Shown: positions 38,946 to 63,124 of the stretch, piece after piece
How the letters are laid out: each line of letters opens with the position of its first letter
Numbering within the stretch: the first letter of the stretch is position 1
Origin: an uncultured Mycoplasmatota bacterium
Lineage (GTDB): Bacteria; Bacillota_I; Bacilli_A; RF39; UBA660
Assembly (NCBI GenBank): GCA_900543825.1
Contig: UQSR01000005.1
Span: 11,122-75,121 of the forward strand
DNA length: 64,000 nt
Reading direction: 5' to 3'
Notes under the pieces: model-generated
Databases searched by the model: none
What the model saw: only the letters and a program-made list of their open reading frames with translations
Told to the model about the DNA's origin: nothing
Program-made: the position numbers and the translations under genes

Positions 38946-38952
38946 CATCCTC

Positions 38953-39867: not shown

Positions 39868-41911
39868 CTTCCTTCATAATTGCAGTACGAACTCTAACTT
39901 TACTTTTATTAATCTTGATATTAATACTTCCATCCAAATCAGTTCTATATATTTTTGAATTGTTTAAATTTTCTAATACTTCTTCGTTAGGATGGCCATA
40001 TATATTACCTTTCCCCAAAGATATAAGTGAAATTTTAGGAGTAATACAATCTATAAAATCTTTACTACTACTAGTCTTAGAACCATGATGTCCTACCTTA
40101 AAAAAAGTAATATCCGAAAGATTATATTTAGACATAATATAATCCTCAACATTACTAGAGGCATCCCCCATAAACAAAAACTTATATTTCAAATATTCAA
40201 AATAAATAACATTACTATTATCATTTTCATTATCAAATATCTTATCATTAAGAAAATATAAATATATACCATGAATATCAATTTTATCACCAAAAGTATC
40301 ATATCCAATGTCCTTATCCTCAAAAATATCAATAGCTTCTTCTTCAAATAACGATTTATCACCTCTATTAAAAATAACCATATCTACCCTAAAATTATCA
40401 GTAAGATTAATAAGACCACCAATATGATCCTTATCACCATGACTAATAATAACATAATCAAGTTTTCTAATCCCTCTGCTTTTCAAATACATTATAATAT
40501 TATTCTTCATAATAGAATACCCATCATCTTCCCCAGTATCAATAAGAATATTACCACCATTATTAGGAAAACTAACAAGATACGAATCACCCTCTCCAAC
40601 ATCAAACATAGTAATCTCTAAATTATTATTAAAATAAGGATAAATATAATGAATTAAAGTAACTAAAATAAACAAATATATAAACCTCTTATATCTATAA
40701 ATACCATAAATAATAACAAAATATAAAATAACTATAATAATACTAGGTTTGCAAAAAATAAATCTCATAAAAGAAATATCATTCAAAAAGAAAGATATAT
40801 CCTCTAAAATACTAGTAAAGAAAAACATAATACTATCACATATAGGAAAAAACAAAGTAATAATAGCAAGTGGAATCAAAATAACACTAACTATAGGTAC
40901 AATTAAAACATTAATAATAATACTAAAAACATTAACCTCATAAAAATAAAATACAGTAATAGGAAAAGATACCAAAAAAGATATAACAGAAGTATAAACT
41001 ACCTTAATAAAATAATTTTTATTTTTATATTTATCATAAAAAAGAATAAGAAAAAAACTAATTAAATAAGAATAAATAAAACCAATATCATAAATAATAA
41101 AAGGATTAATAAAAATAGCGATAACTAAAGTAAATAACATAATATCAATTTTATCAATTTCCAATTTAAAAAAATAATTAATACTACTAAGTATAAACAT
41201 AATACAGGCTCTAAGTAAAGAAGAAGTATATGAAAAAATCAAATAAAATATAAGAAAAATATCACTAATAAAATATTTAATACGTTTATTATAAGTAATC
41301 TTATCCAAATAAATATATAAAATACCAATAATAAGATTAATATGCATACCACTTATAGAAAACAAATGACTTATACCATTAATTCTATAACTTTCCTTAA
41401 TATCACTAGAAAGACTATTATCTCCAAATAATAAAGTCTTAATATAATTACCAGACTTAAATTTATTAACCCTATCATATAAAATATTTTTCAAAGTATA
41501 AAAATAATTACTATTATTTTCTATCTTATTAATACTACTAGCCTTAACTATATAAAATATCTTCCTATTATATAAATAATCTTTATAACTAAAAGAGTTA
41601 AATATAGTACTATCCATAGGAGTATATAACTCTCCTTTAACAAGAAGTTTATCACCATAAAGAAGTTTATCAAAAACCAAATTATTATAACTATAATTAA
41701 CAATTAATACCTCTTTAGCCTTAAGCGTAATACTAATCTTACCATCACTAACTTTATAATCAGTAACAATTCCCACAAAAGTATCATCGTCTTTTTCATA
41801 ACAAGATTCAAATTTATAATAACGCGTAAACAATATCGCTCCTATTAAAAAAATTAAAGCTAATAACTTAAATAAATATTTAAACTTTAATATACATCTT
41901 AATCTTTTCAA
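39860..41911 (-). CDS. comEC: DNA internalisation competence protein ComEC/Rec2
   Basis: 683 aa: N-terminal OB/DUF4131-like region, multi-TM competence domain, C-terminal metallo-beta-lactamase fold (ISHGDKDHIGG). Confidence 0.85.
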   Translation of the reverse strand: MKRLRCILKFKYLFKLLALIFLIGAILFTRYYKFESCYEKDDDTFVGIVTDYKVSDGKISITLKAKEVLIVNYSYNNLVFDKLLYGDKLLVKGELYTPMDSTIFNSFSYKDYLYNRKIFYIVKASSINKIENNSNYFYTLKNILYDRVNKFKSGNYIKTLLFGDNSLSSDIKESYRINGISHLFSISGMHINLIIGILYIYLDKITYNKRIKYFISDIFLIFYLIFSYTSSLLRACIMFILSSINYFFKLEIDKIDIMLFTLVIAIFINPFIIYDIGFIYSYLISFFLILFYDKYKNKNYFIKVVYTSVISFLVSFPITVFYFYEVNVFSIIINVLIVPIVSVILIPLAIITLFFPICDSIMFFFTSILEDISFFLNDISFMRFIFCKPSIIIVILYFVIIYGIYRYKRFIYLFILVTLIHYIYPYFNNNLEITMFDVGEGDSYLVSFPNNGGNILIDTGEDDGYSIMKNNIIMYLKSRGIRKLDYVIISHGDKDHIGGLINLTDNFRVDMVIFNRGDKSLFEEEAIDIFEDKDIGYDTFGDKIDIHGIYLYFLNDKIFDNENDNSNVIYFEYLKYKFLFMGDASSNVEDYIMSKYNLSDITFFKVGHHGSKTSSSKDFIDCITPKISLISLGKGNIYGHPNEEVLENLNNSKIYRTDLDGSINIKINKSKVRVRTAIMKEGE

Positions 41912-42527
41912 ACAAAGAATCCCCTATACCATCTACATTCTTAATATCATCTATAGAATTAAAATTACCATTCTTATCTCTATATTCAATAATAGCTTTA
42001 GCCTTACTTCTTCCAATACCTTTAATATCCATAAGTTCATCTATATTAGCAGTATTAATATTAACAAGTTCATCATCTTCATTATTATCACTAATACATG
42101 CATCATTACTAATATCAGGGCAATCACATACACATACCTCATTTTTATATTTCTCTAAAATTTCTTCATTAGAATAAATAATAATAGTCATTTCATCACT
42201 AACTACTTTAGCCAAATTAATCTTACTAGTATCAGCTCCATCAAGTAGTCCTCCAGCGGTTTCAATAACATCATTAACCCTAAAACTACTAGGAACCTCA
42301 TATACACCAGGATTAACCACCATCCCCTTAATATCCACTATTACAGTATTAGTATCATCTTTCATCTCTTCTATTATATCATCATTACTATTATTATCAC
42401 TATCATCTTTTTCTTTAAAAATATCTACCACATCATCACTCTTACTATAATTATTTTTATATAAAACAAAAATAATACCTCCAAGTATAAAAGAAATACC
42501 AAGTAAAATAAAAATTACCTTCTTCAA
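41880..42527 (-). CDS. comEA: Competence DNA-binding protein ComEA (membrane-anchored HhH)
   Basis: N-terminal TM, SLBB-like middle region, C-terminal tandem helix-hairpin-helix (NINTANIDELMDIKGIGRSKAKAIIEYRDKNGNFNSIDDIKNVDGIG). Confidence 0.8.
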   Translation of the reverse strand: MKKVIFILLGISFILGGIIFVLYKNNYSKSDDVVDIFKEKDDSDNNSNDDIIEEMKDDTNTVIVDIKGMVVNPGVYEVPSSFRVNDVIETAGGLLDGADTSKINLAKVVSDEMTIIIYSNEEILEKYKNEVCVCDCPDISNDACISDNNEDDELVNINTANIDELMDIKGIGRSKAKAIIEYRDKNGNFNSIDDIKNVDGIGDSLFEKIKMYIKV

Positions 42528-43993: not shown

Positions 43994-46516
43994 CTATTTA
44001 TTCAAATTAGTATATCCCTTAAGATGTCTCAAAATACCCAAACAATCATCCTTATCAATCTTACCATCTTTATTATTATCAGCAGCTATAGCATAATAAG
44101 ATTTCAAATCACCATAACCCTTAAGATGTCTCAAAATACCCAAGCAATCATCCTTATCAATCTTACCATCACCATTAACATCACCATAGATAACAATACC
44201 AAAACTCTCTTCTTCCTTACCATTACCAATAACTACAACGTCTCCAGTAACAAAAGTACCACTAGTCTTATTATTACCTTTATTATCCTTTATATTAACA
44301 CTAGCATAATTACTAACTTTCTTAATATTATCAATTAAACTACTAATAGAAGTACCCTCATCAATACCAAAAATATAATCATTATTATATTTAATACCAG
44401 AACTATTCAAAATAGTATCAATTGATGGAATATCATCAGGATTATCTATCTCATCACGTTTAACATTAATAACATATTCTCTACTATTACCACTCTCAGA
44501 AGTAACAATAACACTTATCTTCTTCTCATTACTATCAATACTAATATCACCAGTACCACTAATAGAAGATGAACTAGCAATCTTACTAGCACTAATATTA
44601 ACACTACCAGTACCAGCAGGTACACTAACATCATAAGTATAAGTATCATAACTAAATCCACTAACAGTAGTCCCATTAACCTTCAAATCATTTAAATAAT
44701 TATTAGGATTACCAATTCTAGGAGCAGTAACAGCATAATTAGGCATATCCTTATATACAGGAATAGTAAATTCTAAATCCTTATCAAAATAATCCGAAAT
44801 AATATTAACATAAGACTTATAAACCTTATCAGTCTCTTGAGCAATAACCGCTAAATTCTGCATATACTGATGTGTATAATTACCATTATTCGTAGATACA
44901 TCAAACTTCTCATAATATAAAGTATCCTGATTAACACCACAATATTCATCATAAATAAACTTACTACCACCATATATACCACGATATGGAGTATTCCATC
45001 CATTTTCAACAGCATATCTCATACCATTTAAAATCTTATTAGTACCATAAACCTTAATATTAAAGAAATTATAATAATTAGAATAATTAGTACCATCTAA
45101 AGTAAAACTACCACCACTTCTAGGATCAGAAGTACCAATACCAGATATTTCCTGTTTAATTCTCGCTGCTATATGAAAAGAACTAATACCAATATCTTTA
45201 GTAGCATTAAAAACATCAGAATAAGCATTACCACTATAACCAGAATAAACACTATTCCAATAACTATTATTACCCATTATCTTTTTTACACCATCTTCAG
45301 TATGATTACTATTATAATTAAGAAGTTCATAGGCAATAATATATTTAATATTCAAATAATTTCTCGGATCCAAATAATAAGCTACAGCCTCTGAAGAAGC
45401 ATCATACCATCCATTCTCAGTAGCATAAGAAGTAAACTTATTGCTCAAAATATCATAACTATTTATACCCATCGAATAATAATTCTCATTAAATGCACTA
45501 CCCTGTAATAAATTACGACCATAAGCATTCTCTCCACTTACAACCCCATCAAAAGTAAGAGGTATCGTTTCACTTATAAATTTCCAATTAGGATGCCTTG
45601 CATGAAGTTCTGCTAAATAAGGCAAATAGCTATCAGGAAAACCACCTTTTCTTAAAAAATTATAATAATCATCCAAACTATTATTCTTATAATAATTAAT
45701 AGCCATATCAGAAAGCTTAGTAGTATTAACATAATAACCACATACATAACCACTATTACCCTTACTATCTGTTATATTATAATAATAAGGACAAATACCA
45801 CTAGATTCAGAAGAAGAATTAATAGTTATAACTTCACCACAACTAACCTTTTTACCAGTAGTACTACCGCCAGGAGTCTTTCTAAGAGATAAGTCACCAG
45901 TATCCTCAAAACAACTAATAGTTCCATCTCCACTAGGTTTAGAATTATAATTATCTTTTTTATAAATATTATCTCCACTACCCCTACCAATATCTTTAAC
46001 TGGTGTAGAACTATTAACATCACCTATATATTTACCACATGCATATCCAGTATTACCATTATGTCTAACTTTATACCAATTATCACACTTAGTATTACTA
46101 GCAACATTCTTCTCTAATATTTCCATCTCTTCATTACAATCTAATTTATCAACCTTATTAGTTTTATTAATATCACTCCATATATTTAAAGGATCAGTAT
46201 TCTCAATGCATAAAGCCTTACCCTTATAAGTAGTATTAGAATCTTTAAGTTTAATATAATCACCACATGCATAACCAGTAGTAATATCATATCTAACCTT
46301 ATACCAAGTCCTGCAATTACTAGTAGATCCAGCATTAGTATCAAGAACCTCTACATCACTACCACATGGAATACCCTTTCCTATTAAAGAACCACCAGCA
46401 CTATTTCTTATATTAATAGGTTCATTATCATCAGGACAATAAGCAGTTCCATTAGCAGCATATCCTACATTTATAAATAAAACAAATAATACCAAAGTAA
46501 TAATTATCTTCTTCAT
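43994..46516 (-). CDS. Secreted multidomain cell-wall hydrolase candidate: 3x SH3b-like repeats + GH73-like glucosaminidase region + cadherin-like domain + C-terminal dockerin
   Basis: Three WYKV...GY(A/V)CG repeats and an ENGWNTPYRG / YTHQYMQNLAVIAQ glucosaminidase-like segment. Also a cadherin-like NNYLNDLKVNGTT... segment and a duplicated Ca-binding dockerin pair (GDVNGDGKIDKDDCLGILRHLKGY twice). Confidence 0.5.
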   Translation of the reverse strand: MKKIIITLVLFVLFINVGYAANGTAYCPDDNEPINIRNSAGGSLIGKGIPCGSDVEVLDTNAGSTSNCRTWYKVRYDITTGYACGDYIKLKDSNTTYKGKALCIENTDPLNIWSDINKTNKVDKLDCNEEMEILEKNVASNTKCDNWYKVRHNGNTGYACGKYIGDVNSSTPVKDIGRGSGDNIYKKDNYNSKPSGDGTISCFEDTGDLSLRKTPGGSTTGKKVSCGEVITINSSSESSGICPYYYNITDSKGNSGYVCGYYVNTTKLSDMAINYYKNNSLDDYYNFLRKGGFPDSYLPYLAELHARHPNWKFISETIPLTFDGVVSGENAYGRNLLQGSAFNENYYSMGINSYDILSNKFTSYATENGWYDASSEAVAYYLDPRNYLNIKYIIAYELLNYNSNHTEDGVKKIMGNNSYWNSVYSGYSGNAYSDVFNATKDIGISSFHIAARIKQEISGIGTSDPRSGGSFTLDGTNYSNYYNFFNIKVYGTNKILNGMRYAVENGWNTPYRGIYGGSKFIYDEYCGVNQDTLYYEKFDVSTNNGNYTHQYMQNLAVIAQETDKVYKSYVNIISDYFDKDLEFTIPVYKDMPNYAVTAPRIGNPNNYLNDLKVNGTTVSGFSYDTYTYDVSVPAGTGSVNISASKIASSSSISGTGDISIDSNEKKISVIVTSESGNSREYVINVKRDEIDNPDDIPSIDTILNSSGIKYNNDYIFGIDEGTSISSLIDNIKKVSNYASVNIKDNKGNNKTSGTFVTGDVVVIGNGKEEESFGIVIYGDVNGDGKIDKDDCLGILRHLKGYGDLKSYYAIAADNNKDGKIDKDDCLGILRHLKGYTNLNK

Positions 46517-47435: not shown

Positions 47436-48770
47436 TTATTCCTCTATAATGGCGGTTTTTTTATAAAAGAAATACATTCCAACTCCAAAAGAAATAACTA
47501 AAATCATACATATAACAACATATATAGTATTTCCTGTTTCAGGTGGCATAACATCATTATCCTTATTTTTTTCACCTACAGGTGCATTACCTTCAGCATC
47601 TTTTCTAACTATTTTAAAAGTATAAATCCGATCTTTCTCATTATCAGCCTTCACTATAACTTTCAAAATATTTTCCCCAACATTAATATTTGCAAAAGGA
47701 GTTGCATTATAAACTAAACGACCTGTTTTATCAGTTTTCCAAATAAGTTCACCATCTAAGTAGCCATCATGTCCCCCAAGTTCATTATCCTTTACTTTAA
47801 TATTATTGTTTTCCTCCATTGCTTTCAAAATATCAACATCATTAAAAAGCATGACCATTTTCATATCATTATCCAAATCACCACTAACAGCGGAATCAAT
47901 TAAACAAAGATAATCATCTCTATCAGCATTATCTGAACACTCAGCAAATTTAGTAACTTTATTATCAACAATAATTAAATAATCAGTCTTATTCTTATCA
48001 AAACCATAATCATAACCTAAGAAAACAAACTTTGTTAAATAGTTGTCCCCTTTTCCAGTAGGCTTTTCAACAACAGTTTCACCAGGTTTCTTAATATTAA
48101 TAATATAACTCTTAATCAAATTTCTATTTTCTGCTTTTACAGTAATTTTAAATGTATTAGTTCCAGGTTTTAGCGTCTTAATACCTGTACCAGTAACTTC
48201 TGCATCAGAATCATTAGGGGTTGCCTTAATCTCAACACTATTAAGAGATTCAGGAGCCTCAATATTGTATTCATTTTTAAATCTATCAAATTCAAAAGTT
48301 AAACCAGTAACTTCTAAATTTTTTAAACTATTATCAACAGACTGAACATAAACATTTTTACTAACATCTATACCTCTAACTTCTGTTCCATCACTTTTAG
48401 TAGCCACAATATCACTAATTGTAATAGTTTTATTTTTTTTAGGCTCATCATTAATACTAGACATAACAGTAATTTCACCAATTTTATTATTACCAGAAGA
48501 AATACCATTAATAGTTAATATTTGATCATCACCAATTTCAATAGTTTTTGAGTCATTACTAGTAAAACTACATTTTGAAGTACTACTATCAAGAACCTTC
48601 ATTTTAAGACTACTAACATCAAAGTCACTATTAACCATAAAACCACATTTAATAATTCCAGAAAATGTAATTTTCTCCGGACAAGACAAATCAATATTAA
48701 TAGTATCAGCACAAACAAATATAGGTATAAATAATACCATAGCAAATATATAATATATAATTTTTTTCAT
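47436..48770 (-). CDS. Surface protein with cadherin-like domain and C-terminal (S/P)PxTG-type sorting signal (PPETG)
   Basis: Signal peptide, cadherin-like segment (NSLKNLEVTGLTFEFDRFKNEYNIEAPESLNSVEIKATPNDSDAEV). C-terminus: PPETGN, then a hydrophobic segment, then YKKTAIIEE. Confidence 0.55.
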   Translation of the reverse strand: MKKIIYYIFAMVLFIPIFVCADTINIDLSCPEKITFSGIIKCGFMVNSDFDVSSLKMKVLDSSTSKCSFTSNDSKTIEIGDDQILTINGISSGNNKIGEITVMSSINDEPKKNKTITISDIVATKSDGTEVRGIDVSKNVYVQSVDNSLKNLEVTGLTFEFDRFKNEYNIEAPESLNSVEIKATPNDSDAEVTGTGIKTLKPGTNTFKITVKAENRNLIKSYIINIKKPGETVVEKPTGKGDNYLTKFVFLGYDYGFDKNKTDYLIIVDNKVTKFAECSDNADRDDYLCLIDSAVSGDLDNDMKMVMLFNDVDILKAMEENNNIKVKDNELGGHDGYLDGELIWKTDKTGRLVYNATPFANINVGENILKVIVKADNEKDRIYTFKIVRKDAEGNAPVGEKNKDNDVMPPETGNTIYVVICMILVISFGVGMYFFYKKTAIIEE

Positions 48771-48828
48771 TTTTTCCCTACTTTCTATACTATACTCATC
48801 ATAACATATAAAACAAATTTTAGCAATA

Positions 48829-48870
48829 AAAATTCAAAAAAGTAGAAGAATATTAATACTCTTCTACTTT
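48829..48870 (-). terminator. Rho-independent terminator of the 558-aa pilin / 153-aa partner unit
   Basis: 11-bp stem AAAGTAGAAGA-(10-nt loop)-TCTTCTACTTT overlapping the 153-aa gene stop; the minus strand continues with TTGAATTTTT. Confidence 0.55.
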
Positions 48871-49314
48871 AAAACTATATGCATTACTAATATCCCTATT
48901 AATCTGTGAAAAGAAATCCCTCTTCTTACCAAATTCCAACTCATAAATCTCAGTCTTAAAAGAATATATTTCCTTATTATCTTTATCAAATAATGTAATC
49001 TTTAATCTAAGATCTTTATTAGTATTAGAATTTAAATTCATAACATATCCATCAAATTCACTCCTATTAGAAGAACATATAACATACATATCAGTAAAAA
49101 CATAATTATCATATACATACTTTTCCATATTCATATTATCAAGTAAATTAATTTCTTTTGTAGTACCAATACTTTCAACATATTCAGTATGACAATCAGT
49201 ACAATCATTATCTTTTTTATTAATAAGTAATATCATACCAATTATCAAAACACTAATTATAATTAATAAAATTATTAATACCCTTTTCTTATTCACTAAT
49301 ATCACCTCTAACAA
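48853..49314 (-). CDS. Small bitopic membrane protein translationally coupled to the 558-aa modular pilin
   Basis: N-terminal TM (VLIILLIIISVLIIGMILLI), ~110-aa Cys-containing ectodomain; start overlaps the pilin stop by 7 nt. Confidence 0.45.
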   Translation of the reverse strand: MLEVILVNKKRVLIILLIIISVLIIGMILLINKKDNDCTDCHTEYVESIGTTKEINLLDNMNMEKYVYDNYVFTDMYVICSSNRSEFDGYVMNLNSNTNKDLRLKITLFDKDNKEIYSFKTEIYELEFGKKRDFFSQINRDISNAYSFKVEEY

Positions 49315-50984
49315 GAATTTTTAGTAGTTTCATCAAAACTATTATTATCACCACTAATATTTTGTAATGAACTTCTAGTAGTAATAGCACAATCATCATA
49401 TATCTTCCATCCATTAGGAATTCCATACGGATAGTCAGGACAAACAAATTTCTCACCAATCTTAGCAACATGACTATTATAATAATCTTTCGACATACCA
49501 CAAACACTACAATAAACAGCAAATCCATAATTATGATAATTGCCACAAGTAAACTGTGTTGATTGCCCTATAGCAAATTTTCTAATTCCCCTTGCTTTCC
49601 ATACATGCGTATGTTCTTGAGTTATACAATTTCTTAACGTATCCCTATCAACAGTTCCATATTCAGAGCTACCATCAAATTCCGTATAATTACAAGTAGT
49701 TTCACTACATGTAGTAATATAATATTTACCATTACTATTGCATCTATAATCATTAATAGAATCTATAAAGCAAGAACTATTATTTAAAGTTGTTCTATTT
49801 ATCTTTCCAACAGTATATTCAAAATAAGATTTATCGTTTTCCTTATATGCCACCGCAGTATATTCACACATATCATCAGGATCACAATAAGTAATAAAAT
49901 AAGAATAAATACCTTGACATCTCCAATCATTAATAGTTGCATCAATATTCTTCCAATTAACTTTAAGAGTTACAGTACAATCACCATTTGAAGCATCACA
50001 GAACTCACTAGCTTTATATGCCTTATCCTGATCAAAAGTTTTACCAACAGTACTACATCCACTACTAGAATCACATATCCAAGTCTCACTATCATATGCA
50101 AAATAACCATCTTTTGTAATATATAAATATTCAGGATTATTATAATTAGCAAGACCAGCACTATCTAAAGAGCCTCCATAATTTATAGTATGGAATACCT
50201 CACTATCATTCCAAGAACAATTAATAACATTATTACTAGTACTACAAGTACCATTAGTAGTACTACCCCTAACACTACCACCATTAGCATCAAGCTTAAT
50301 ATATACCTTATTAATCCTCCACTGAGCATATAAAGTCAAATCAGCATTACTATTATAAGAAGCACCAGCCTTATAAGTAGTTCCACTACCATCCTTTTTA
50401 GTATTCCAATTAACAAAAGTATAACCAGTTCTTGTAGGTTTACTACTAGATAAACTAATACTTTTATTTTCTATTTTACTCTGATCACCAGGAGCATTAC
50501 TACCACCATTAGCATTATAGCTAATAGTATATAAATTATTTTCTTCTGTTTCCTTATTAACACAAGCCTTATAATCATTACTATTAACATCAGCATTATC
50601 ACCCAATATAACAGGTTCACTCTTAACTAAAGAAACCTTATCCTTTTTAATAGAAATATAATTACTCTTATTAATATTATCCGGAAGTTTAGCATTCTTC
50701 TTAATAATACCCTTATTAATAAGTTCCTCAATAGTTATACAATAATATTTATAATTACCACTACCAGGATCAATCCATAAACTATCATCAGCTTCATCAG
50801 CATATAAACTAGCACTCTTCTTAATACTAGTTTCGCTAATTAAAGAACCCTTTTCTTTAGACTTATTAACCAAATTAACAATACCATAAGTACCAATACC
50901 AAGTATTATCGCTACAATAGCAATAACACCAAGTAACTCTATTAAAGTAAAACCCTTATTATTAATCCTTTTCATATATAACAC
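49308..50984 (-). CDS. Modular type IV pilin-like protein (prepilin N-terminal cleavage/methylation domain + Flg_new repeat + Cys-rich module), 558 aa
   Basis: Class-III leader MKRINNKGFTLIELLGVIAIVAIILGIGTYGIV (G|FTLIE), pilin-like head to ~aa 120. One Listeria-Bacteroides/Flg_new repeat (YTISYNANGG...GYTFVNWNTKKDGSGTTY...LTLYAQW), then a ~235-aa Cys-rich module shared with the 1124-aa paralogue. Confidence 0.7.
   Translation of the reverse strand: MLYMKRINNKGFTLIELLGVIAIVAIILGIGTYGIVNLVNKSKEKGSLISETSIKKSASLYADEADDSLWIDPGSGNYKYYCITIEELINKGIIKKNAKLPDNINKSNYISIKKDKVSLVKSEPVILGDNADVNSNDYKACVNKETEENNLYTISYNANGGSNAPGDQSKIENKSISLSSSKPTRTGYTFVNWNTKKDGSGTTYKAGASYNSNADLTLYAQWRINKVYIKLDANGGSVRGSTTNGTCSTSNNVINCSWNDSEVFHTINYGGSLDSAGLANYNNPEYLYITKDGYFAYDSETWICDSSSGCSTVGKTFDQDKAYKASEFCDASNGDCTVTLKVNWKNIDATINDWRCQGIYSYFITYCDPDDMCEYTAVAYKENDKSYFEYTVGKINRTTLNNSSCFIDSINDYRCNSNGKYYITTCSETTCNYTEFDGSSEYGTVDRDTLRNCITQEHTHVWKARGIRKFAIGQSTQFTCGNYHNYGFAVYCSVCGMSKDYYNSHVAKIGEKFVCPDYPYGIPNGWKIYDDCAITTRSSLQNISGDNNSFDETTKNSC
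49600..50320. repeat. ~0.7-kb direct repeat copy A (about 94% identical to 51930-52640) encoding the Cys-rich module
   Basis: The protein segments (R/K)xNKVYIKLDANGGSVRGSTT...TLKVNWK..I..TINDWRC...DRDTL are near-identical. Embedded antisense ORFs 49970..50161 and 52269..52460 differ at only ~6 of 63 codons. Boundaries approximate. Confidence 0.6.
50680..50984. repeat. ~0.3-kb direct repeat (near-identical to 54560-54870) encoding the shared pilin leader/head
   Basis: The first ~100 aa of the 558- and 1124-aa proteins are almost identical, including long identical nucleotide runs (e.g. acccttattaataagttcctcaatagttatacaataatatttataattaccactaccagg). Confidence 0.6.
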
Positions 50985-51070
50985 CTATCCTAAGACTAAT
51001 TATAATATATTTTAAAAAAAAAGAAAAGACCATTAACAAAATAAATGTTAATAGTCCTATATAATAAGTA

Positions 51071-51493
51071 TCATCCTAATGGTTTTTCAAAATAATATAC
51101 TGTACTGCTAAATTCCCCCGAATCCTCTTTTAAAAGCATCATATCATTTTCATAAGAAACCTTAAAAACCCCAGAAAAATAATCAGAATTATTAATAGTT
51201 AATATATCATCTTTTTTTGTATAATTATTGGTGTAACATTTATCATAACAAACATCTACTTTATCATCATAAAATGTAAGGGTAAAAGGAGCCATATCAT
51301 AAGGAATATCTATCTTATTACCATTATTATCATAAGTTTCATATTTTGTATAACTCCAAGTTTCATAGTTTTTATCATCTAATTTAGTTCCTTGTTTTTT
51401 AACAAAAACAAAAATCAATAAGCCAATCATTACCAATAAAATAATAAAAATACATAAATATAACACTTTAATTTTTTTATTCATATCAACCAT
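51071..51493 (-). CDS. Small bitopic membrane protein translationally coupled to the 1124-aa modular pilin
   Basis: N-terminal TM (VLYLCIFIILLVMIGLLIFVFV), ~105-aa ectodomain with 4 Cys; its start is 3 nt after the pilin stop. Confidence 0.45.
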   Translation of the reverse strand: MVDMNKKIKVLYLCIFIILLVMIGLLIFVFVKKQGTKLDDKNYETWSYTKYETYDNNGNKIDIPYDMAPFTLTFYDDKVDVCYDKCYTNNYTKKDDILTINNSDYFSGVFKVSYENDMMLLKEDSGEFSSTVYYFEKPLG

Positions 51494-51495
51494 TT

Positions 51496-54400
51496 CTAAT
51501 AAAATCCTCCAGTCTCAACAGAACCACTAGGGCAAGAACTACGACAGAAGTTACCTATGCAATCTCCTTTACCATTATAGCCTGCATAAGAACCACCTAA
51601 GGAACTAATCTTACTACGACACTGAGCATCAGAGCCAGCAGAAGTAATACATTTAACAATTTTTTTACAGCCACCACTTGTTCCGCCACCACTAGAGCCA
51701 ACGCAACTACTAGGTTTACTTGAAGACAAAGCACTTCCAACCGAGTAACATCCATCATTTGTTACATAATACCATCCGTTAGTAGCATTTACATTAACAG
51801 TTAAAGCAGCACCGCAACTATAGGCCACAGCAATACCATATGAAGTTCCAGCACCATAACGACAGTTTACTCCATTTGATGAAGTAACATACATTGTCTT
51901 AGTATCCGGAACACACTCTTTCAACGTATCTCTATCAACAATATAAAGATTATTAGGGTTCATAGTATTACCATTAAGTTCAGTATATATACATGTAGTT
52001 ACACTACATGTAGTAATTTTATATTTACCATTACTATTACATCTATAATCATCAATATTATCAACAAAACATGAACTAAGATTTAAATTATTCCTATTTA
52101 TCTTACCATAAACACGTTCCGAATAAGATGCACCATTTTCTTTATATGCTCTTGCTGTATATTCACACATATCATCAGAATCACAATAAGTAATAAAGTA
52201 AGAATATTTATCATGACATCTCCAATCATTAATAGTAGTATCAATTTTCTTCCAATTAACTTTAAGAGTTACAGTACAATCTCCACCTGAAGCATCACAG
52301 AACTCACTAGCCTTATATGCCTTATCCTGATCAAAAGTTTTACCAACAGTACTACATCCACTACTAGAATCACATATCCAAGCTTCACTAGCATATGCAA
52401 AATAACCATCTTTTGTAATATATAAATAATCAGGATTATTATAATTAGCAAGACCAGCACTATCTAAAGAATCACCATAATCAATAGTATGAAATAATTC
52501 TTTAGGACTATTCCAACTACAACCGATAAGATTATTATTAGTCCTACAACTACCATAAGTAGTACTACCCCTAACACTACCACCATTAGCATCAAGTTTA
52601 ATATATACTTTATTCTTTTTCCATCTAGCATATAATACAAGTTTATTTTCCGCTATACCGTATTGACCATCAGCATAGTTCCAAGTACCACTCCAACCTG
52701 TCCATCCATAGCCATCATCTGTTCCATTACTTTTTGTTGTCCAACCAGCAAATGTATAACCATCACGTGTAAAGCCATTATTCTTAATAGTAACATTAGT
52801 ACCAAATTCAGCATTATTACTTTCCATAGTACCAGTTCCACCATTTGCATTATAATTAATTCTATAAACTACACCCTTCCAACCAGCATATATCGTTTTA
52901 TTACCTTCCGTATTATATATATCTGAAGATATATACTGAGATATTCTTCTACCTTCCTTTAAACCATATTCAAAGTAATGTTTATATAAACGATTAGCAT
53001 CATAACCAAAAGCATTCTTTAAATCACTATAAGTGTCAGCATAATAATTAAGAGGACTATTTTTATAATTATTATCAAACCAACCTACAAAAGCATAACC
53101 ACGTTTACTAGGTGTACATAAAGTACCATATTCATCACCATAATTCATTGATTTACTAGTGCACCCACTACCACCATTATTATCATAAAGCAAAGTATAA
53201 TTCTTAGTTTTCCAATTAACACCAAGTACTACAGTACAACTCTTATCCTTTGCATCACAAAAATCATCAGAACTATATGCCTCATATTGGCTATATACTT
53301 TTCCACTAGTAGTACATCCGCTTAAACAAATCCATTCCTTATTCTTAGTAACAATAGCATCATTTCTAGTAATATATAAATAATCTTTATTATTATAATT
53401 AGCAAGCCCATTACTATTCATCTTTTCACCATAATTAATAGTATGGAAAATATTTTTGCCATTTCTACTAATAATACCAGAAGAATCAGTAGTATATGTC
53501 CCACCTTTTGAAGTTTCTTTAGTTACACTACCACCATTAGCATTAAGTTTAATATTAACTCTACTTTTAATAATAGGATAATAAGTATTACTACCATCAA
53601 TATCTTTAGAAGTATTTGCCTTCCATATACTACTACTAGCACTACTATCAGTATTCCAGCCTACTATTGTATAACCATCTTTACTAATACTAGGAGATTT
53701 AATACTACATTTCTTATCAATATCATTCAAACAAATATTAGTAATATCATTAGTACCATTATTAATCTTATCAGCATTACCCTTCTTAAATACTGTTCGG
53801 TACAAATTAAATTTCTTATCATTATCTTTATAATTACCAGTTTTATCCATTATTCTAGCAGTAATATCACCATTCTTAATTTCATTATCCTTATAAGTAA
53901 TCTTAACTTCATTTTCATTAACCTTATACCACTTATCTTTAGTAATATTACTAGTACTACCACTACAAGTAAATTTATTATCACTACCAAGCGTACATTC
54001 ACTAACATTCTTATCACTAGTACCATCGACATTAGACTTAAAATAATGCTTACCTTGATCACTCCTAATATTATCATCCTTATAAGTAATCGTAATAGTA
54101 TCATCCTTATAACTAAACGTAGGATCCACAAAATCAGCAAGAGGATAAGTTTTAGTTTCAGAGCAAACTTTAGATCCCTTCTCTGTAGACATACATACTC
54201 TAACATAATAATCATTATTATTTTTATCGTTTGTAAGATTAACTATATTACATACATTTTCATCTTTATCAATAGAAATTACATTTTCCCCATCTGCTAT
54301 AGAAGATGAACCATTTTTATACTGACACCATTTTTCCTTAATTGAACTTTCTGTTTCGGCATTTTTAAACTCTATAACAAAACCATCAGTATATGATTTA

Positions 54401-54870
54401 CCATCACCAAGTTCTGGACTTTTATTTATATCTTCATTATATTTATTACCAGTACACACTTGATAATCAGTACTATTAATATCAGCATTAGAACCCAATA
54501 TAATCGGATCATTTTTAACAAAAGTAACCTTATTTTTCTTAATCGAAACATAATTATATTTATCTATACCCTTAGGAAGTTTAGCATTCTTCTTAATAAT
54601 ACCCTTATTAATAAGTTCCTCAATAGTTATACAATAATATTTATAATTACCACTACCAGGATCAATCCATAAACTATCACCAGCTTCATCAGCATATAAA
54701 CTAGCACTCTCCTTAATACTAGTTTCACTAATTAAAGAACCCTTTTCTTTAGACTTATTAACTAAATTAACAATACCATAAGTACCAACACCAAGTATTA
54801 TCGCTGTAATAGCAATAATAGCCAGTAACTCTATCAAAGTAAAACCCTTATTATTGATTTTATTTTTCAT
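51496..54870 (-). CDS. Giant modular type IV pilin-like protein (prepilin N-terminal domain + several Flg_new repeats + two copies of the Cys-rich module + Gly/Ser/Cys-rich tail), 1124 aa
   Basis: Leader MKNKINNKGFTLIELLAIIAITAIILGVGTYGIV and head near-identical to the 558-aa paralogue; at least three Flg_new-type repeats (e.g. YRINYNANGGTGTM...GYTFAGWTTKSNGTDDGY...LVLYARW). Two copies of the (R/K)..IKL(D/N)ANGGSV...FHTI(N/D)YG...GLANYNN.DYLYIT module; C-terminal SSCVGSSGGGTSGGCKK... tail. Confidence 0.7.
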   Translation of the reverse strand: MKNKINNKGFTLIELLAIIAITAIILGVGTYGIVNLVNKSKEKGSLISETSIKESASLYADEAGDSLWIDPGSGNYKYYCITIEELINKGIIKKNAKLPKGIDKYNYVSIKKNKVTFVKNDPIILGSNADINSTDYQVCTGNKYNEDINKSPELGDGKSYTDGFVIEFKNAETESSIKEKWCQYKNGSSSIADGENVISIDKDENVCNIVNLTNDKNNNDYYVRVCMSTEKGSKVCSETKTYPLADFVDPTFSYKDDTITITYKDDNIRSDQGKHYFKSNVDGTSDKNVSECTLGSDNKFTCSGSTSNITKDKWYKVNENEVKITYKDNEIKNGDITARIMDKTGNYKDNDKKFNLYRTVFKKGNADKINNGTNDITNICLNDIDKKCSIKSPSISKDGYTIVGWNTDSSASSSIWKANTSKDIDGSNTYYPIIKSRVNIKLNANGGSVTKETSKGGTYTTDSSGIISRNGKNIFHTINYGEKMNSNGLANYNNKDYLYITRNDAIVTKNKEWICLSGCTTSGKVYSQYEAYSSDDFCDAKDKSCTVVLGVNWKTKNYTLLYDNNGGSGCTSKSMNYGDEYGTLCTPSKRGYAFVGWFDNNYKNSPLNYYADTYSDLKNAFGYDANRLYKHYFEYGLKEGRRISQYISSDIYNTEGNKTIYAGWKGVVYRINYNANGGTGTMESNNAEFGTNVTIKNNGFTRDGYTFAGWTTKSNGTDDGYGWTGWSGTWNYADGQYGIAENKLVLYARWKKNKVYIKLDANGGSVRGSTTYGSCRTNNNLIGCSWNSPKELFHTIDYGDSLDSAGLANYNNPDYLYITKDGYFAYASEAWICDSSSGCSTVGKTFDQDKAYKASEFCDASGGDCTVTLKVNWKKIDTTINDWRCHDKYSYFITYCDSDDMCEYTARAYKENGASYSERVYGKINRNNLNLSSCFVDNIDDYRCNSNGKYKITTCSVTTCIYTELNGNTMNPNNLYIVDRDTLKECVPDTKTMYVTSSNGVNCRYGAGTSYGIAVAYSCGAALTVNVNATNGWYYVTNDGCYSVGSALSSSKPSSCVGSSGGGTSGGCKKIVKCITSAGSDAQCRSKISSLGGSYAGYNGKGDCIGNFCRSSCPSGSVETGGFY
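51930..52640. repeat. ~0.7-kb direct repeat copy B (paralogue of 49600-50320)
   Basis: See copy A; boundaries approximate. Confidence 0.6.
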
Positions 54871-54948
54871 GACTTTTCACTTCCTATTTCCCTATCATCG
54901 TATATCATCTAAAACAATTATACAATAAAAAGAAAAAGAAAACAAGAG

Positions 54949-57150
54949 TTAAATTCTCGAAGGATTAAAATCAATCGAAACATCTATCTTGTTATTTCTT
55001 ACCTGCATATCTATAATAAATTTAAGTACTTTCATAAGACTATCATCTTTTCTATATTTAATAATAATTTGATAGTGATAAATATTATTAACTTTAAACA
55101 TATTAGCCATAGTAGGGCCTAAAACAATACTATCATTGCTAATATTATTTCTAATATAACTACCAATTTTATTAGCTTCTTTAAATCCAAGTTCATAATC
55201 CTTAGAAGTAATAGATACAAGAACCATATAATAATAAGGAGAATACTTAAGCATTTTTCTTACCTTCATCTCTTCTTTATAAAAATCTATATAATCATGA
55301 TTCTTAGCCAAAGTAATAGCATAATGATCTGGATTAAAAGTTTGAACAATAACCTCACCCTTATTCTCACTTCTACCAGCTCTACCAGAAACTTGTGATA
55401 ATAATTGAAAAGTATTTTCACTAGCCCTATAATCAGGAGACGTAAGACTACTATCAATAGATACAACCCCAACTAAAGTAACCAAAGGAAAATCAAGCCC
55501 CTTAGCAATCATCTGTGTACCAATTAAAATATCATACTTATGTTCTCCAAAATCATCAATAATCTTTTGATGCTGTCCTTTCTTACTAGTAGTATCAACA
55601 TCCATTCTTACAATTCTAGCCTTATACAAACTATTAAGAGTTTCTTCTAATTTTTCCGTACCAAGTCCATAATCCTTCAAATTATCACTACCACATATAG
55701 AACATTTGTTAGGAAGTACCATCGAATAACCACAATAATGACATTTAAGATTATTACTACTCTTATGATAAGTATAAGTAATATCACAATTAGGACACTT
55801 ATATACATATCCACATTCCTTACAACTAATAGTACTAGAATAACCCCTTCTATTAAGAAGAATAATAGCCTGCTCACCTTTACTTAAAACCTCAGAAATT
55901 TTATTCTTAAGCATATCCGATAAAATAAAGTTACCCTTCTTAACCTCTTCTTTCATATCAATAATATTAACAATAGGAAGAACACTCCCCCCAGCTCTTT
56001 CTGTCAAAGAAAGAAGTTTATACACATGATTACCAGCTTTAGCAAAGCTTTCCAAACTAGGAGTAGCACTACCAAGTACCAAAGGACAATTATGATATTT
56101 ACTTCTCCATTCAGCCACATTAATAGCGGAATATCTAGGATTATTATCCTGCTTATAAGAAGAAGTATGCTCTTCATCAATAATAATAATCCCAATATTA
56201 GTAAAAGGAACAAAGATAGCACTTCTAGTACCAATAACAATCTTAGATTCCCCATTAGTAATCTTACGATATTCATCATATCTTTCACTATCAGAAAGTT
56301 TAGAATGTAAAACCGCTATAACATTACCAAATCTAGATATAAACTTACCAACAATTTGAGGAGTAAGTCCAATTTCTGGTACTAACATTATAGCGCTTTT
56401 CCCATTATTAATAGCCTTTTCAATAACATCCATATATACCTCAGTCTTACCACTACCAGTAACGCCATATAATAGAAAAGTATCACTCTTACCAAAAGAA
56501 GATATAATAGTATCACTAACCAATCTTTGTTTATCAGTTAAATTAACTCTTTTATAATTACTAATACCATCATATCTATATCTCTTGCACTCTTCATATA
56601 TAATACTAGCAAAACCATACTTAATAATAGTATTAATACTACTAGACATCTTAGTAATTAAAATATCCCCCTCTTTTAACTTACAAAGCAAATTAATTTG
56701 ACTTTCATACTTACAATTATCAATATATCTATCAATCTCTTCTATACTCTTAATTCTATGTAAATATCTATCATATTTAATCTTAATATTACTTTTAACT
56801 TCCGCTTTTAATGCTTTTGGAAGCATTACCTGATAACAAGAAGATAAAGAAGCCAATAAATTATCACTCATATACTTACCAAGAAGTAACATCTCCTTAT
56901 TAAGAACAGGTTCCTCATCAATAACATTAATAATATCCTTAATCTTACTATTATCATAACTACTATTATCAGAAATACCAAGTACAAATCCATCTAGTAT
57001 CATATTTCCAAAAGGAATTCTAACCCTAACACCAATTTTAATATTATTTTCTAATAACTTAGGAACATGATAAAAAAAAGTTTGATCAACTGCCTTAGCC
57101 CCAATTTGTGTAAGAACCGAAACATACATATAATCACCTCCAAATATCAA
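54949..57150 (-). CDS. priA: Primosomal protein N' (replication restart helicase PriA)
   Basis: Walker A GVTGSGKTEVY, DEEH box (IIIDEEHTSSYKQ), two Cys4 zinc-binding motifs (CKECG...CPNCD / CHYCG...CSICG), 733 aa. Confidence 0.9.
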   Translation of the reverse strand: MIFGGDYMYVSVLTQIGAKAVDQTFFYHVPKLLENNIKIGVRVRIPFGNMILDGFVLGISDNSSYDNSKIKDIINVIDEEPVLNKEMLLLGKYMSDNLLASLSSCYQVMLPKALKAEVKSNIKIKYDRYLHRIKSIEEIDRYIDNCKYESQINLLCKLKEGDILITKMSSSINTIIKYGFASIIYEECKRYRYDGISNYKRVNLTDKQRLVSDTIISSFGKSDTFLLYGVTGSGKTEVYMDVIEKAINNGKSAIMLVPEIGLTPQIVGKFISRFGNVIAVLHSKLSDSERYDEYRKITNGESKIVIGTRSAIFVPFTNIGIIIIDEEHTSSYKQDNNPRYSAINVAEWRSKYHNCPLVLGSATPSLESFAKAGNHVYKLLSLTERAGGSVLPIVNIIDMKEEVKKGNFILSDMLKNKISEVLSKGEQAIILLNRRGYSSTISCKECGYVYKCPNCDITYTYHKSSNNLKCHYCGYSMVLPNKCSICGSDNLKDYGLGTEKLEETLNSLYKARIVRMDVDTTSKKGQHQKIIDDFGEHKYDILIGTQMIAKGLDFPLVTLVGVVSIDSSLTSPDYRASENTFQLLSQVSGRAGRSENKGEVIVQTFNPDHYAITLAKNHDYIDFYKEEMKVRKMLKYSPYYYMVLVSITSKDYELGFKEANKIGSYIRNNISNDSIVLGPTMANMFKVNNIYHYQIIIKYRKDDSLMKVLKFIIDMQVRNNKIDVSIDFNPSRI

Positions 57151-60618: not shown

Positions 60619-61473
60619 TTATAATCTTTCCAAAACTCCATTTTCCAAATCGTCTATATTATATATTGTTTCAAGTACATTAAAAGTTTCTTCAAGATTA
60701 TGTTTAGCATTATTCCAACCAGTTCCATCAGTAAACCAAATAAATGTTACACCTGTAACTTTTTTAGCTTCTTCCGCTAGCATTTTATAGCTTCTAGCAG
60801 TTTCATTTAGTTTAGAACCACCACTTGTATAAAAATTTGTTTCTATAACATATACCATATTTTCTTTCTTTATAACAAAATCAAATCTTTTAGCGGATAC
60901 ATTATTTCCCGACATAGCACTTAAATCCAAATTCCACTTTCTTTCTATATCCTTCAAATACATTTCCTTAAAATATGTATCATTCTTTTTATACCCAGCT
61001 TTTACAATATATTCTTCTACTAAATTTTCCATTAAATGACCACCACGATTTTTTCTACCATTTGAATCCAAACCAACCTCTATTCCTAGAACATAATCAT
61101 ACAAATTATTTATAATATGATTTTGAAGCAAATCAAAAAGGCCACACTCTCTCATAAATCTAATATAGTCATCAACCGAGTACACTAACTTCTTAAAATT
61201 GAATAAATACTCATTTATCTCATCTTTTATAAAAATTTCACTAGAACGAACCGCAAGTAACAAAGGAATACATTCCAATGTTTCAGGATACCTTATTATT
61301 ATATTTTGAAAATCATCTTCAATTTTTTCACTACCAATCAAAGAATTTAAAATATTTAATTCCAATTTTACCTTATCAACATTTTTATATATCTTATCAA
61401 AATCAACATAATAAGCATAATTTGATATACTTGATTTAAAACTGCTAAACCACTCATTAAAATCTCTATTCAT
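60619..61473 (-). CDS. dpnB: Type II restriction endonuclease, DpnII/MboI family (GATC)
   Basis: 284 aa; conserved blocks LNILNSLIGSE, GLFDLLQNH, GRKNRGGHLMEN, KRFDFVIK and SKLNETARSYKM match DpnII endonuclease (DpnB). Confidence 0.8.
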   Translation of the reverse strand: MNRDFNEWFSSFKSSISNYAYYVDFDKIYKNVDKVKLELNILNSLIGSEKIEDDFQNIIIRYPETLECIPLLLAVRSSEIFIKDEINEYLFNFKKLVYSVDDYIRFMRECGLFDLLQNHIINNLYDYVLGIEVGLDSNGRKNRGGHLMENLVEEYIVKAGYKKNDTYFKEMYLKDIERKWNLDLSAMSGNNVSAKRFDFVIKKENMVYVIETNFYTSGGSKLNETARSYKMLAEEAKKVTGVTFIWFTDGTGWNNAKHNLEETFNVLETIYNIDDLENGVLERL

Positions 61474-62249
61474 TATTTATCATTCTCCAATCTTCTAATA
61501 GTCAAGTCCAAATACCCTTTTTCTCTTTCTATACCAATATATTTTCTATTTAATCTGCTTGCAACTATCCCAGTTGTACCACTACCATTAAAAGGATCTA
61601 AAATCAAATCACCTTCATCTGTTGATGCCATAATGACTTTTTCAAGTAATTCTATCGGTTTCTGCGTAGGATGTTTCCCACATTTCTTCTCACTAGGCTT
61701 AGTAAGTGATGTTTCCCATACGTCTTTCATTTGCTTATTATTATTTAATTTTTTCATAGCATCATAATTAAACTTATATTTAATATTCTTTATATCTTTT
61801 TTTGCCCACAAAATAGTCTCAGTAGAATGCACAAATGCACGACAGCTTATATTAGGAGGTGGATTTAATTTTCTCCAAGTAATATTATTTATTATCTTAA
61901 ACCCGTTCTCTTCAAGTGCCATACCTATTGAATAAATATTATGCATAGTACCACTTATCCATATAGTACCATTATCCTTTAACACTCTTTTACATAATTT
62001 AATCCATTCTTTATTAAATTTATGTTTCTCTTTAAAATCAATAGCCTTATCCCATTCTCCTTTGTTAACACTTACCATCTTACCTCCACTGCAGGTTATA
62101 CCATTATCAGATAGAAAATAAGGAGGATCTGCAAAAATCATATCAATACTCTCTGGTTTAATACTTTTAAGCACTTCCAAAGAATCACCATATATAAGTT
62201 TAAAATCACATTTATCATAATAATAAGCAAACTTTTTCATAAGTATCAC
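61473..62249 (-). CDS. dpnA: DpnA-like N6-adenine DNA methyltransferase (ssDNA-active second MTase of DpnII cassettes)
   Basis: 258 aa; MIFADPPYFLSDNG (DPPY), WISGTMHNIYSVGMALE, KHPTQKPIELLEKVI and DPFNGSGTTG (FxGxG) align along their length with DpnA. Confidence 0.8.
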   Translation of the reverse strand: MILMKKFAYYYDKCDFKLIYGDSLEVLKSIKPESIDMIFADPPYFLSDNGITCSGGKMVSVNKGEWDKAIDFKEKHKFNKEWIKLCKRVLKDNGTIWISGTMHNIYSIGMALEENGFKIINNITWRKLNPPPNISCRAFVHSTETILWAKKDIKNIKYKFNYDAMKKLNNNKQMKDVWETSLTKPSEKKCGKHPTQKPIELLEKVIMASTDEGDLILDPFNGSGTTGIVASRLNRKYIGIEREKGYLDLTIRRLENDK

Positions 62250-62263
62250 ATCCTTGTAACATG

Positions 62264-63124
62264 TTATATTAAGTTATCAAAACCTCTCTTGTTCTCAAAA
62301 TTTGTAATTATAACTTCTTCTACTTTTCCTCTTTTTTTACCATTAGCATTAATATTCCTCTTAGCCTCTATAACATGAATATTAAAATCACTATAAAGTT
62401 CATTAATAAGCTTAGTATTATGATTAGAAAGCATTACAAAACATCCCCTATCAGATAACTCTCTAAATACTTTTGCTAGCCTTCTCTGTTCACCTTTTCC
62501 AAAACCATCTTCTGTATAACTATTAAAAGTAGAAGTATCAGAATCATATGGTGGATCAAAATATATAAAATCACCTCTTTTAGCAGTACTTACAGCATCT
62601 TCAAAATCAATAGATAAAATCTTAATATCATTATAATTTAAAAAACCACAAATTATACCCAAGTTCTGCCCCTCATAAGTATTAACTTTAGCTTTTTTAC
62701 CAAAAGGAACATTAAATTCCCCTTTACTATTAACCCTATATAATCCATTAAAACAAGCCTTATTTAAATAAATAGTTCTAGCGGCTCTTTTATAATCAGC
62801 AATTTTATTAAACTTTTTCTTATCCCTATCTATATTTCTAATTTCATAATAATAATCTTCAGAATGATACATCTCATGACGATTTAATTCTCTACACATA
62901 GCTTCAAACTTTTTCTCATCTTTAATACAATTATATACATTCATAAGTTCATAATTAGAATCATTAATTACTGCCCTTTTAGGAGATAACTCAAATAATA
63001 ACGCACCACCACCCACAAAAGGTTCATAATAAGTATCAAACTCATCAGGAACATATTCCATAAGTTTATTCATTATTTGTCTCTTACCACCAGCCCACTT
63101 TACAAATGGTCTACCTTTAATCAT
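62264..63124 (-). CDS. dpnM: Dam-family GATC N6-adenine DNA methyltransferase (DpnM-like)
   Basis: 286 aa; FVKWAGGKRQ, EPFVGGGALLFEL (FxGxG), NGLYRVNSKGEFNVPFG and DFIYFDPPY match DpnM/Dam. Confidence 0.85.
   Translation of the reverse strand: MIKGRPFVKWAGGKRQIMNKLMEYVPDEFDTYYEPFVGGGALLFELSPKRAVINDSNYELMNVYNCIKDEKKFEAMCRELNRHEMYHSEDYYYEIRNIDRDKKKFNKIADYKRAARTIYLNKACFNGLYRVNSKGEFNVPFGKKAKVNTYEGQNLGIICGFLNYNDIKILSIDFEDAVSTAKRGDFIYFDPPYDSDTSTFNSYTEDGFGKGEQRRLAKVFRELSDRGCFVMLSNHNTKLINELYSDFNIHVIEAKRNINANGKKRGKVEEVIITNFENKRGFDNLI

Follow-up and report, generated by a model that had tools for sequence, protein, structure and literature searches.

Genes, modules and repeats at the locus

The DNA considered here, a 64,000-nt stretch of contig UQSR01000005.1 (in the following termed "the window"), carries at positions 49,300-54,900 a locus with two tandem genes for putative modular type IV pilins, LONG and SHORT, parts of which recur as long direct repeats. 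All genes of the locus lie on the minus strand, and each pilin gene is followed by a gene for a small membrane-anchored protein:

51496..54870, minus strand: LONG, modular type IV pilin gene, 1124 aa (open reading frame; Pfam N_methyl and Flg_new)
51071..51493, minus strand: sm140, small membrane-anchored protein gene, 140 aa, 3' of LONG (open reading frame)
51026..51058, minus strand: terminator-like hairpin with T-run between sm140 and SHORT (terminator scan)
49308..50975, minus strand: SHORT, modular type IV pilin gene, 555 aa, ATG start, MKRINNKGF (open reading frame; Pfam; TIGR02532)
48853..49296, minus strand: sm147, small membrane-anchored protein gene, 147 aa, 3' of SHORT (open reading frame)
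48839..48870, minus strand: terminator-like hairpin after sm147 (terminator scan)

The open reading frame of SHORT extends from 49308 to 50984 with a GTG start. The ATG at 50975 is taken as the true start because the corresponding protein is on record exactly, in 280 blocks of a public assembly collection, in which the GTG-start version has no exact-protein record. The same look-up with the LONG open reading frame of the window gave no match; protein P0132 is 100% identical to the LONG of the window.

By their architecture, LONG and SHORT are assigned to the modular type IV pilins. Their translations begin with a class III signal peptide (IPR012902; MKRINNKG/FTLIELL in SHORT, MKNKINNKG/FTLIELL in LONG) that has a short basic leader with Gly at -1, Phe at +1 and Glu at +5, and the cleavage site of which is followed by a hydrophobic α1-N segment of about 20 residues (FTLIELLGVIAIVAIILGIGTYGIV and FTLIELLAIIAITAIILGVGTYGIV). 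In profile searches with Pfam and NCBIfam models, PF07963 (N_methyl) matched SHORT with 28.9 bits and LONG with 25.1 bits (cut-off 21.2), and TIGR02532 matched SHORT with 24.7 (cut-off 16.3). In both genes, non-pilus modules are fused C-terminally to the pilin module, among them PF09479 (Flg_new, the Listeria-Bacteroides or InlB B-repeat), which scores 70.8 bits in LONG and 63.3 bits in SHORT. The order of modules in SHORT is pilin module, one Flg_new repeat, C module and a Cys/His-rich tail, while LONG consists of pilin module, unique insert, Flg_new/C1, two Flg_new repeats, C2 module and an SH3b-like, Gly/Cys-rich tail, with the SH3b-like stretch at residues 996-1048. Sequence comparison with solved structures yielded marginal SH3b and InlB matches only. 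At the protein level, the two have the pilin module (79% identity) and the C module, which contains Cys residues and is rich in beta structure, in common, and they differ in the ~520-aa insert of LONG and in their C-terminal tails.

The hairpin at 51026-51058 would split the locus into two expression units. The terminator scan found three candidates with 0.7 expected, whereas a promoter scan, with 50 sites both found and expected in this AT-rich DNA, was uninformative. TATAAT-like and AGGATAGG elements lie between this hairpin and the ATG of SHORT, and elements resembling a Shine-Dalgarno (SD) site and a -10 box precede both LONG and SHORT. Each gene has a start codon and a signal peptide, an SD-like site and a terminator of its own, and the two are therefore regarded as complete units, neither of which is a silent cassette. 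The small proteins encoded by sm140 and sm147, which are anchored at their N-termini, have no Pfam or NCBIfam match and are not homologous to each other. Upstream of LONG lies priA; downstream of the locus follow genes for cadherin-like, SH3 and dockerin surface proteins and then comEA (41880-42527) and comEC (39860-41911), the competence genes that had been named in a first-pass annotation of this DNA and are indeed present.

Self-blastn of the window resolves the repeated sequence into two pairs and a third, diverged copy:

54463..54858, minus strand: R1, LONG copy (gene 5' end, pilin module; blastn)
50571..50966, minus strand: R1, SHORT copy (blastn)
51969..52635, minus strand: R2, LONG copy (C2 module; blastn)
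49670..50333, minus strand: R2, SHORT copy (C module; blastn)
53210..53568, minus strand: C1, third diverged C-module copy inside LONG (blastn)

The R1 pair aligns over 396 bp at 90.4% identity (E=6e-157) and the R2 pair over 667 aligned bp at 86.1% (E=0), while C1 is ~66-67% identical to both R2 copies. The first-pass annotation had placed two pairs of direct repeats near these sites, 2-4 kb apart; their orientation and spacing (start-to-start distances of 2299 and 3892 bp) agree with it. At the exact coordinates that it gave, the proposed identity of ~94% applies to the 5' pair (93.6%), i.e., to the initial ~300 bp of the genes, but not to the Cys-rich pair (84.3%). What it had missed is C1 and the mosaic nature of the identity: perfect runs are flanked by tracts in which the proportion of synonymous differences (pS) is 0.4-0.5, so that pS ranges from 0 to ~0.5 from one segment to the next. 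The longest run in R1 comprises 105 bp (50683-50787 = 54575-54679) and the longest in R2 70 bp (50014-50083 = 52313-52382), both of which exceed the ~34 bp expected in the window (p<=0.002); a further perfect tract of 35 bp in R2 (49948-49982 / 52247-52281) is the equivalent of a crossover site in another strain, L028, that is described below. In the window alone, identical synonymous sites are significantly clustered in R1 (p=0.006), but not in R2 (p=0.35). The repeats are thus modules common to two complete pilin genes on the same strand.

Two segments of these modules are remarkable in their own right. The N-terminal ~125 residues of the C module (49941-50315, SHORT residues 221-345, with copies in LONG) form a domain for which there is no Pfam model, with invariant Cys, Trp and Gly positions; it is found in 372 cluster representatives (E<=1e-3), often more than once and up to six times per protein, and is a candidate new domain family. 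The first part of the LONG insert (54108-54515, LONG nt ~356-763) occurs in two strongly divergent allelic forms. The form of the window is also found in L024 and P0091, and most strains carry another (the L001 type) that cannot be aligned to it by megablast. That R1 reaches ~400 bp in the window and in L024 is due to their LONG allele, which is SHORT-like at nt 340-400.

Recombinant alleles in conspecific strains

The locus was compared with related loci from human-gut metagenome assemblies (L numbers), which were obtained by short-read sequencing and consist of consensus sequences only. A comparison of flanking genes gave identities of ~99% for tkt across loci with two pilin genes and loci with one, and, across the compared loci, of 96-98.5% for priA, 99.5-100% for comEA and ~98% for comEC. 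On the grounds of this flanking identity, two-gene and one-gene loci are assigned to one species with a common background. The closest GTDB species representative (L013, "uncultured Bacilli bacterium") forms a separate lineage at 92-95% (90% in another comparison), and "Clostridium sp. CAG:302" is a remote relative with 43% identity over the Flg_new region.

The canonical layout priA, LONG, sm140, SHORT, sm147 recurs in L001-L010 and L018-L026. More than 20 independent gut-metagenome assemblies contain the two-gene arrangement, on contigs of up to 1.14 Mb and from several assemblers, as contig names of the MEGAHIT k99/k141, SPAdes NODE, scaffold and "contig_" types indicate. The window is therefore not mis-assembled, a concern that the first-pass annotation had raised for such repeats in short-read data.

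Departures from this layout fall into several classes. Deletion chimeras with a junction in R1 are present in L012, L027, L032 and L034, the latter two of which come from an independent collection. The genes in L027 (P0035, on a 53.6-kb MEGAHIT k141 contig) and L012 (P0090) encode 565 aa and lie directly downstream of priA, followed by a gene for a small transmembrane protein; both combine the upstream region and the first ~250 nt of LONG with SHORT sequence thereafter, and the crossovers map inside the paralog-identical 105-bp tract at 50683-50787. Fusions with a junction in R2 are found in L028, L043 and L044, each with one fused gene and then sm147. The L028 gene, for example, encodes 1400 aa composed of LONG residues 1-874 (including an internal duplication) and SHORT residues 337-555 and is directly followed by sm147. 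Its switch from LONG to SHORT falls into a 35-nt tract, whereas those of L043, L044, the second gene of L041 and L038 lie in tracts of 24, 70, 39 and 41/70/23 nt, respectively; this amounts to at least five independent R2 crossovers. A further protein with the start of LONG and the tail of SHORT, P0146 (1555 aa), is the sole pilin in L029 and L030. The sm140 gene is kept in two-gene loci and missing from the fusion or deletion loci L012, L027, L028, L029 and L030.

Other alleles differ in the number of modules. P0124, P0126 and P0134 each contain an extra ~316 aa with distinct C2/C1 junctions (L812/L489, L759/L453 and L796/L475), and L042 displays the duplication in its locus context. Overall, the lengths of LONG orthologs form classes that begin at ~1108-1128 aa and reach 1830 aa, and the proteins contain two to four C modules. 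Finally, the second gene of L041 joins the pilin module, insert and Flg_new block of LONG to the tail of SHORT, as a double exchange would be expected to produce if R1 and R2 served as its homology arms; a related example is P0091/L011. Taken together with the conversion tracts described below, these alleles bear out the prediction of the first-pass annotation that the repeats are substrates for deletions and chimeric pilins.

As all of these alleles come from assembled contigs rather than reads, which is the main residual uncertainty, they might in principle be artifacts, created when an assembler mis-threads the paralogs or mixes co-resident strains, with all real genomes being canonical. 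The 105-bp tract in R1 and some 70-bp tracts in R2 indeed surpass a k-mer length of 55 that is common in SPAdes, and the "deletions" in L032, L034 and L044 could therefore be mis-resolved repeats; moreover, contig names indicate low coverage (2-7x) for L037, L038, L040, L041 and L044. However, L027 and L030 are MEGAHIT k141 contigs, for which k exceeds every perfect tract of the canonical strains, and the junction tracts of L028 (35 nt), L043 (24 nt) and L041 (39 nt) all remain below k=55, so that chimeric k-mers must exist in the reads. Repeat collapse would also be unable to explain tandemly duplicated segments of ~950 nt, for which three distinct junctions are known, and several variants recur in independent samples: P0146 on three contigs, P0117 and P0047 on ten contigs each, and P0131 with 40 members. 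These points argue that most variant alleles are real, and a purely artifactual origin appears very improbable.

Gene conversion, transfer between strains and the mode of exchange

Besides alleles with altered gene structure, there are tracts in which one paralog has taken on the sequence of the other. The LONG allele of L020 differs from the alleles of L019 and L021, which are identical to each other, at 16 sites, and at 16/16 of them it matches the SHORT gene of L020 itself, giving a perfect LONG/SHORT tract of 601 columns. In the opposite direction, SHORT of L022 has the LONG haplotype over ~250 nt, and the SHORT alleles of L018-21 contain LONG-type tracts that include a 3-nt indel. Conversion between the genes thus goes both ways, from SHORT to LONG in L020 and from LONG to SHORT in L022. 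Depending on the strain, the two core R2 copies of a genome are 80% to 96% identical. The four-gamete test returns minimum numbers of recombination events (Rmin) of 18 (R1) and 40 (R2), with a spatial clustering of site compatibility (PHI-like p<0.001).

These data bear on the possibility that LONG and SHORT result from an old duplication without ongoing exchange, in which case the patchy identity would reflect uneven purifying selection. For the window on its own, the run of synonymous identity in R2 is compatible with this, as it is not significantly clustered. Furthermore, in 11 strains with the SHORT allele of the window the repeat pair is unchanged, with the same 92-94 differences between paralogs, and exchange is therefore not frequent on that time scale; the ratio of nonsynonymous to synonymous differences (pN/pS) between SHORT alleles is below 1 (0.24-0.44), which leaves gene-wide diversifying selection unsupported. 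The outcome that the first-pass annotation had named as refuting its reading, an invariant structure together with an ancient duplication and no continuing exchange, is contradicted by the recombinant alleles in other assemblies. Neither the complete match of the L020 differences to the neighboring paralog, nor the LONG haplotypes with their indel in L022 and L018-21, nor the spread of paralog identity among conspecific strains, nor fusion and duplication alleles with many distinct junctions, nor the Rmin values would be expected without exchange, and we consider this explanation extremely unlikely.

Exchange between strains leaves its own traces. In some pairs, SHORT alleles differ by a pS of up to 0.20, compared to 0.03 for tkt, and in other pairs by 0; the same SHORT allele occurs alongside different LONG alleles. 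A block of ~4.5 kb (L001 ~7950-12450, corresponding to window ~48850-52100), which covers the 3' part of LONG, sm140, SHORT and sm147, has a diversity of ~0 among the 11 strains, with a nucleotide diversity of 0.005-0.03 in the flanks. This suggests that the haplotype has recently spread across diverse backgrounds, although the strains were chosen for an identical SHORT protein and the pattern is partly due to ascertainment. With comEA and comEC adjacent, these observations would fit a scenario in which the mosaics stem mainly from allele replacement between strains, e.g., by natural transformation, rather than from exchange between the paralogs of one genome. Replacement alone leaves the L020 tract unexplained, which carries the haplotype of the strain's own paralog, and the deletions, fusions and duplications require paralogs to pair with each other. 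We regard it as possible, if on balance unlikely, that such replacement predominates; the two processes are complementary rather than exclusive, since incoming DNA that pairs ectopically would lead to identical products. Transfer between strains accordingly appears to shape the locus as well, and the competence genes may have a part in it.

The reading that we favor, and with good confidence, is that two tandem modular pilin genes are diversified by general homologous recombination between their common modules. Crossovers at short tracts, conversion in both directions, and deletions, duplications and replacements together form the signature of this process. General homologous recombination would act on short perfect tracts (23-105 bp) within the diverged repeats, either on a single chromosome, between sister chromosomes or with conspecific DNA that the cell has imported. 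Non-reciprocal conversion tracts would arise in both directions; deletions would join the 5' part of LONG to the 3' part of SHORT via R1 or via R2; unequal exchange between C1 and C2 would add or remove Flg_new-C units; and the block between R1 and R2 could be replaced with both repeats serving as homology arms. Repeats, gene structures and recombinant alleles are seen directly in the sequences. Crossover tracts of 23-105 nt would be compatible with RecA-mediated exchange; a dependence on RecA and a selective agent are both presumed. The outcome would be a modular diversification, at the population level, of a surface-exposed protein, presumably a pilus-tip adhesin.

Several of the observations above weigh against this account or narrow it, namely the reliance on short-read consensus sequences, perfect tracts longer than k=55, the lack of clustering in R2, the constancy of the repeat pair in 11 strains and the low pN/pS. 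A further one is that no pilus-assembly genes (ATPase, platform, prepilin peptidase) are encoded in the 64-kb window. The incorporation of LONG and SHORT into a pilus is thus presumed, and a role as adhesins at the pilus tip is suggested by the modular-pilin architecture together with the neighboring surface-protein genes. The only other pilin-like gene in the window encodes a ComGC-like protein of 130 aa (19199-19591) with an N_methyl match and an NF040999 score of 44 bits, under the cut-off of that model; it adjoins spoIIGA and a sigma-factor gene, with no assembly genes nearby.

The first-pass annotation had interpreted the locus in terms of antigenic or modular variation, and of these the modular variation is upheld. 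Programmed, high-frequency antigenic or phase variation within a clone, by pilE/pilS-like conversion or by an invertase shufflon, might be suspected where pilin genes contain repeated, cassette-like modules and where conversion tracts as well as one-gene and two-gene states coexist in one species. However, both copies are complete, as described above, conversion is seen in both directions between strains, and 280 blocks of the collection contain the commonest SHORT allele in identical form. Searches by blastn and tblastn revealed no further or silent copies of the pilin genes in the 64 kb, a scan of both strands of the whole window for a G-quadruplex (G4) motif (G3+N1-7 x4) was negative, 48000-56500 contains no inverted-repeat pairs of >=40 bp, and there is no recombinase gene among the neighbors (priA, genes for small transmembrane proteins and for cadherin-like/dockerin surface proteins). 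The lack of a G4 motif, silent cassettes, inverted repeats and a recombinase therefore speaks for ordinary recombination between paralogs and not for a programmed system of the Neisseria type, which we deem very unlikely here. A more far-reaching version of paralog exchange is that R1 and R2 serve as the homology arms of a cassette-exchange locus that lets this very prevalent gut bacterium with its small genome switch between one-gene and two-gene states within a host, with binding modules of the pilus-tip adhesin being expanded or swapped. This is speculative, and we consider it unlikely; if true, the rate of switching would be high enough to influence colonization or escape from immunoglobulin A (IgA) or phages.

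Other features of the window, related systems and meaning

The repeat locus is located ~10 kb from the apparent replication terminus. On their coding strand, minus-strand genes have a GC skew at third codon positions (GC3 skew) of -0.2 to -0.66 up to 38450 and of +0.4 to +0.87 from 38953 onwards, and the few plus-strand genes left of 38450 have values of +0.4 to +0.6. This switch at ~38.5-38.9 kb would fit converging replication forks, in which case nearly all genes in the left ~38 kb (gyrB, ligA, leuS and others) would be oriented head-on to replication. The intergenic region of the skew boundary (~38450-38953) contains a tRNA, and nothing convincing was found in a search for a dif-like site near the switch.

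Variation between strains is not limited to the pilin genes. The gene for an 840-aa protein with SH3, cadherin-like and dockerin features (43994-46516) shares only ~94-95% identity with its counterpart in each of the other strains, with a pS of 0.08-0.10 compared to 0.03 for tkt and a pN/pS of ~0.45; another variable surface protein is thus represented in the window by an allele of its own. At 60619-63124, three open reading frames (284, 258 and 286 aa) correspond in length and position to genes annotated in L028 as a DpnII endonuclease and two methyltransferases, and in about half of the related loci a NUDIX gene takes their place beside tkt, which points to a presence/absence polymorphism of a restriction-modification island. 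At 12892-15115, a sortase gene and the gene for a 534-aa protein, in which thioester (TED) and SpaA prealbumin-like domains are recognized, lie side by side and form a sortase-type pilus or adhesin locus, and an IS605 OrfB/TnpB-like gene (OrfB_IS605, Cas12f1-like TNB and HTH domains) is found at 29264-30397.

Modular pilins are a large group: more than 1,200 of them with 264 architectures have been compiled, multi-repeat examples included, and bulky modules were argued to sit at the pilus tip and bind ligands (Raynaud et al., 2021; PMC8179133). PilB and PilC of Streptococcus sanguinis resemble LONG and SHORT in their class III signal peptide and in a pilin module that carries grafted non-pilus domains. 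Here, in contrast, the grafted parts are Flg_new repeats and a domain without a Pfam model, the genes are tandem paralogs that would exchange modules, and the proteins are known from their genes alone. A study of gut pilins in TANB77 (PMC11680825) was considered and set aside as unrelated, since it concerns small pilins of the Tad/CpaF type.

With regard to the process, the closest analogues appear to be emm-enn of Streptococcus pyogenes and babA/babB of Helicobacter pylori; direct-repeat paralogs and natural chimeras with crossovers in common segments, the features of this class, are both found at the present locus. In emm4 S. pyogenes, recombination between paralogs has produced a chimeric gene that circulates in natural populations, the emm-enn fusion (PMC6321872), and M and M-like genes are mosaic (PMC9993116); adjacent surface-protein paralogs on the same strand recombine via common sequence and delete the intervening DNA, as seems to be the case here. 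The protein family and the organism are different, and the present locus has two repeat pairs with an internal third copy and yields products of several kinds, namely deletions at R1 or R2, duplications and a replaced block. In H. pylori, RecA-dependent intragenomic conversion among babA, babB and babC generates chimeras in a sizeable fraction of isolates (reviewed in PMC5483490). Paralogous adhesin genes with common segments form chimeras in that case, too, but the bab loci are dispersed and encode outer-membrane proteins, and their CT-repeat phase variation has no counterpart here.

The likeness to pilE/pilS of Neisseria gonorrhoeae, a pilin gene diversified by conversion from homologous copies (PMC3547852), is confined to a type IV pilin as the target and to gene conversion. 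The gonococcal system comprises many silent promoterless cassettes, a G4 sequence, a small RNA encoded in cis and high-frequency one-way conversion; neither silent 5'-truncated cassettes nor, in a scan of the whole window, a G4-forming sequence was found here. The shufflons of R64 pilV and Moraxella piv rely on inverted repeats and an adjacent recombinase, neither of which was found at this locus. A literature search for pilins with Listeria-Bacteroides repeats or for this locus returned no earlier description. Recombination between tandem surface-protein paralogs is already well known; it is the locus that is new, and the advance is incremental.

The organism, an uncultured bacterium, occurs in hundreds of human-gut metagenomes. 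A practical consequence of the recombination is that strain-level pangenome analyses and analyses of metagenome-assembled genomes will miscount genes at this locus. The origin of modular pilins has been attributed to "tinkering", i.e., to the grafting of functional modules onto a pilin carrier. The locus described here displays such tinkering within one species, with modules that are added, removed, swapped and fused via short tracts of identity.

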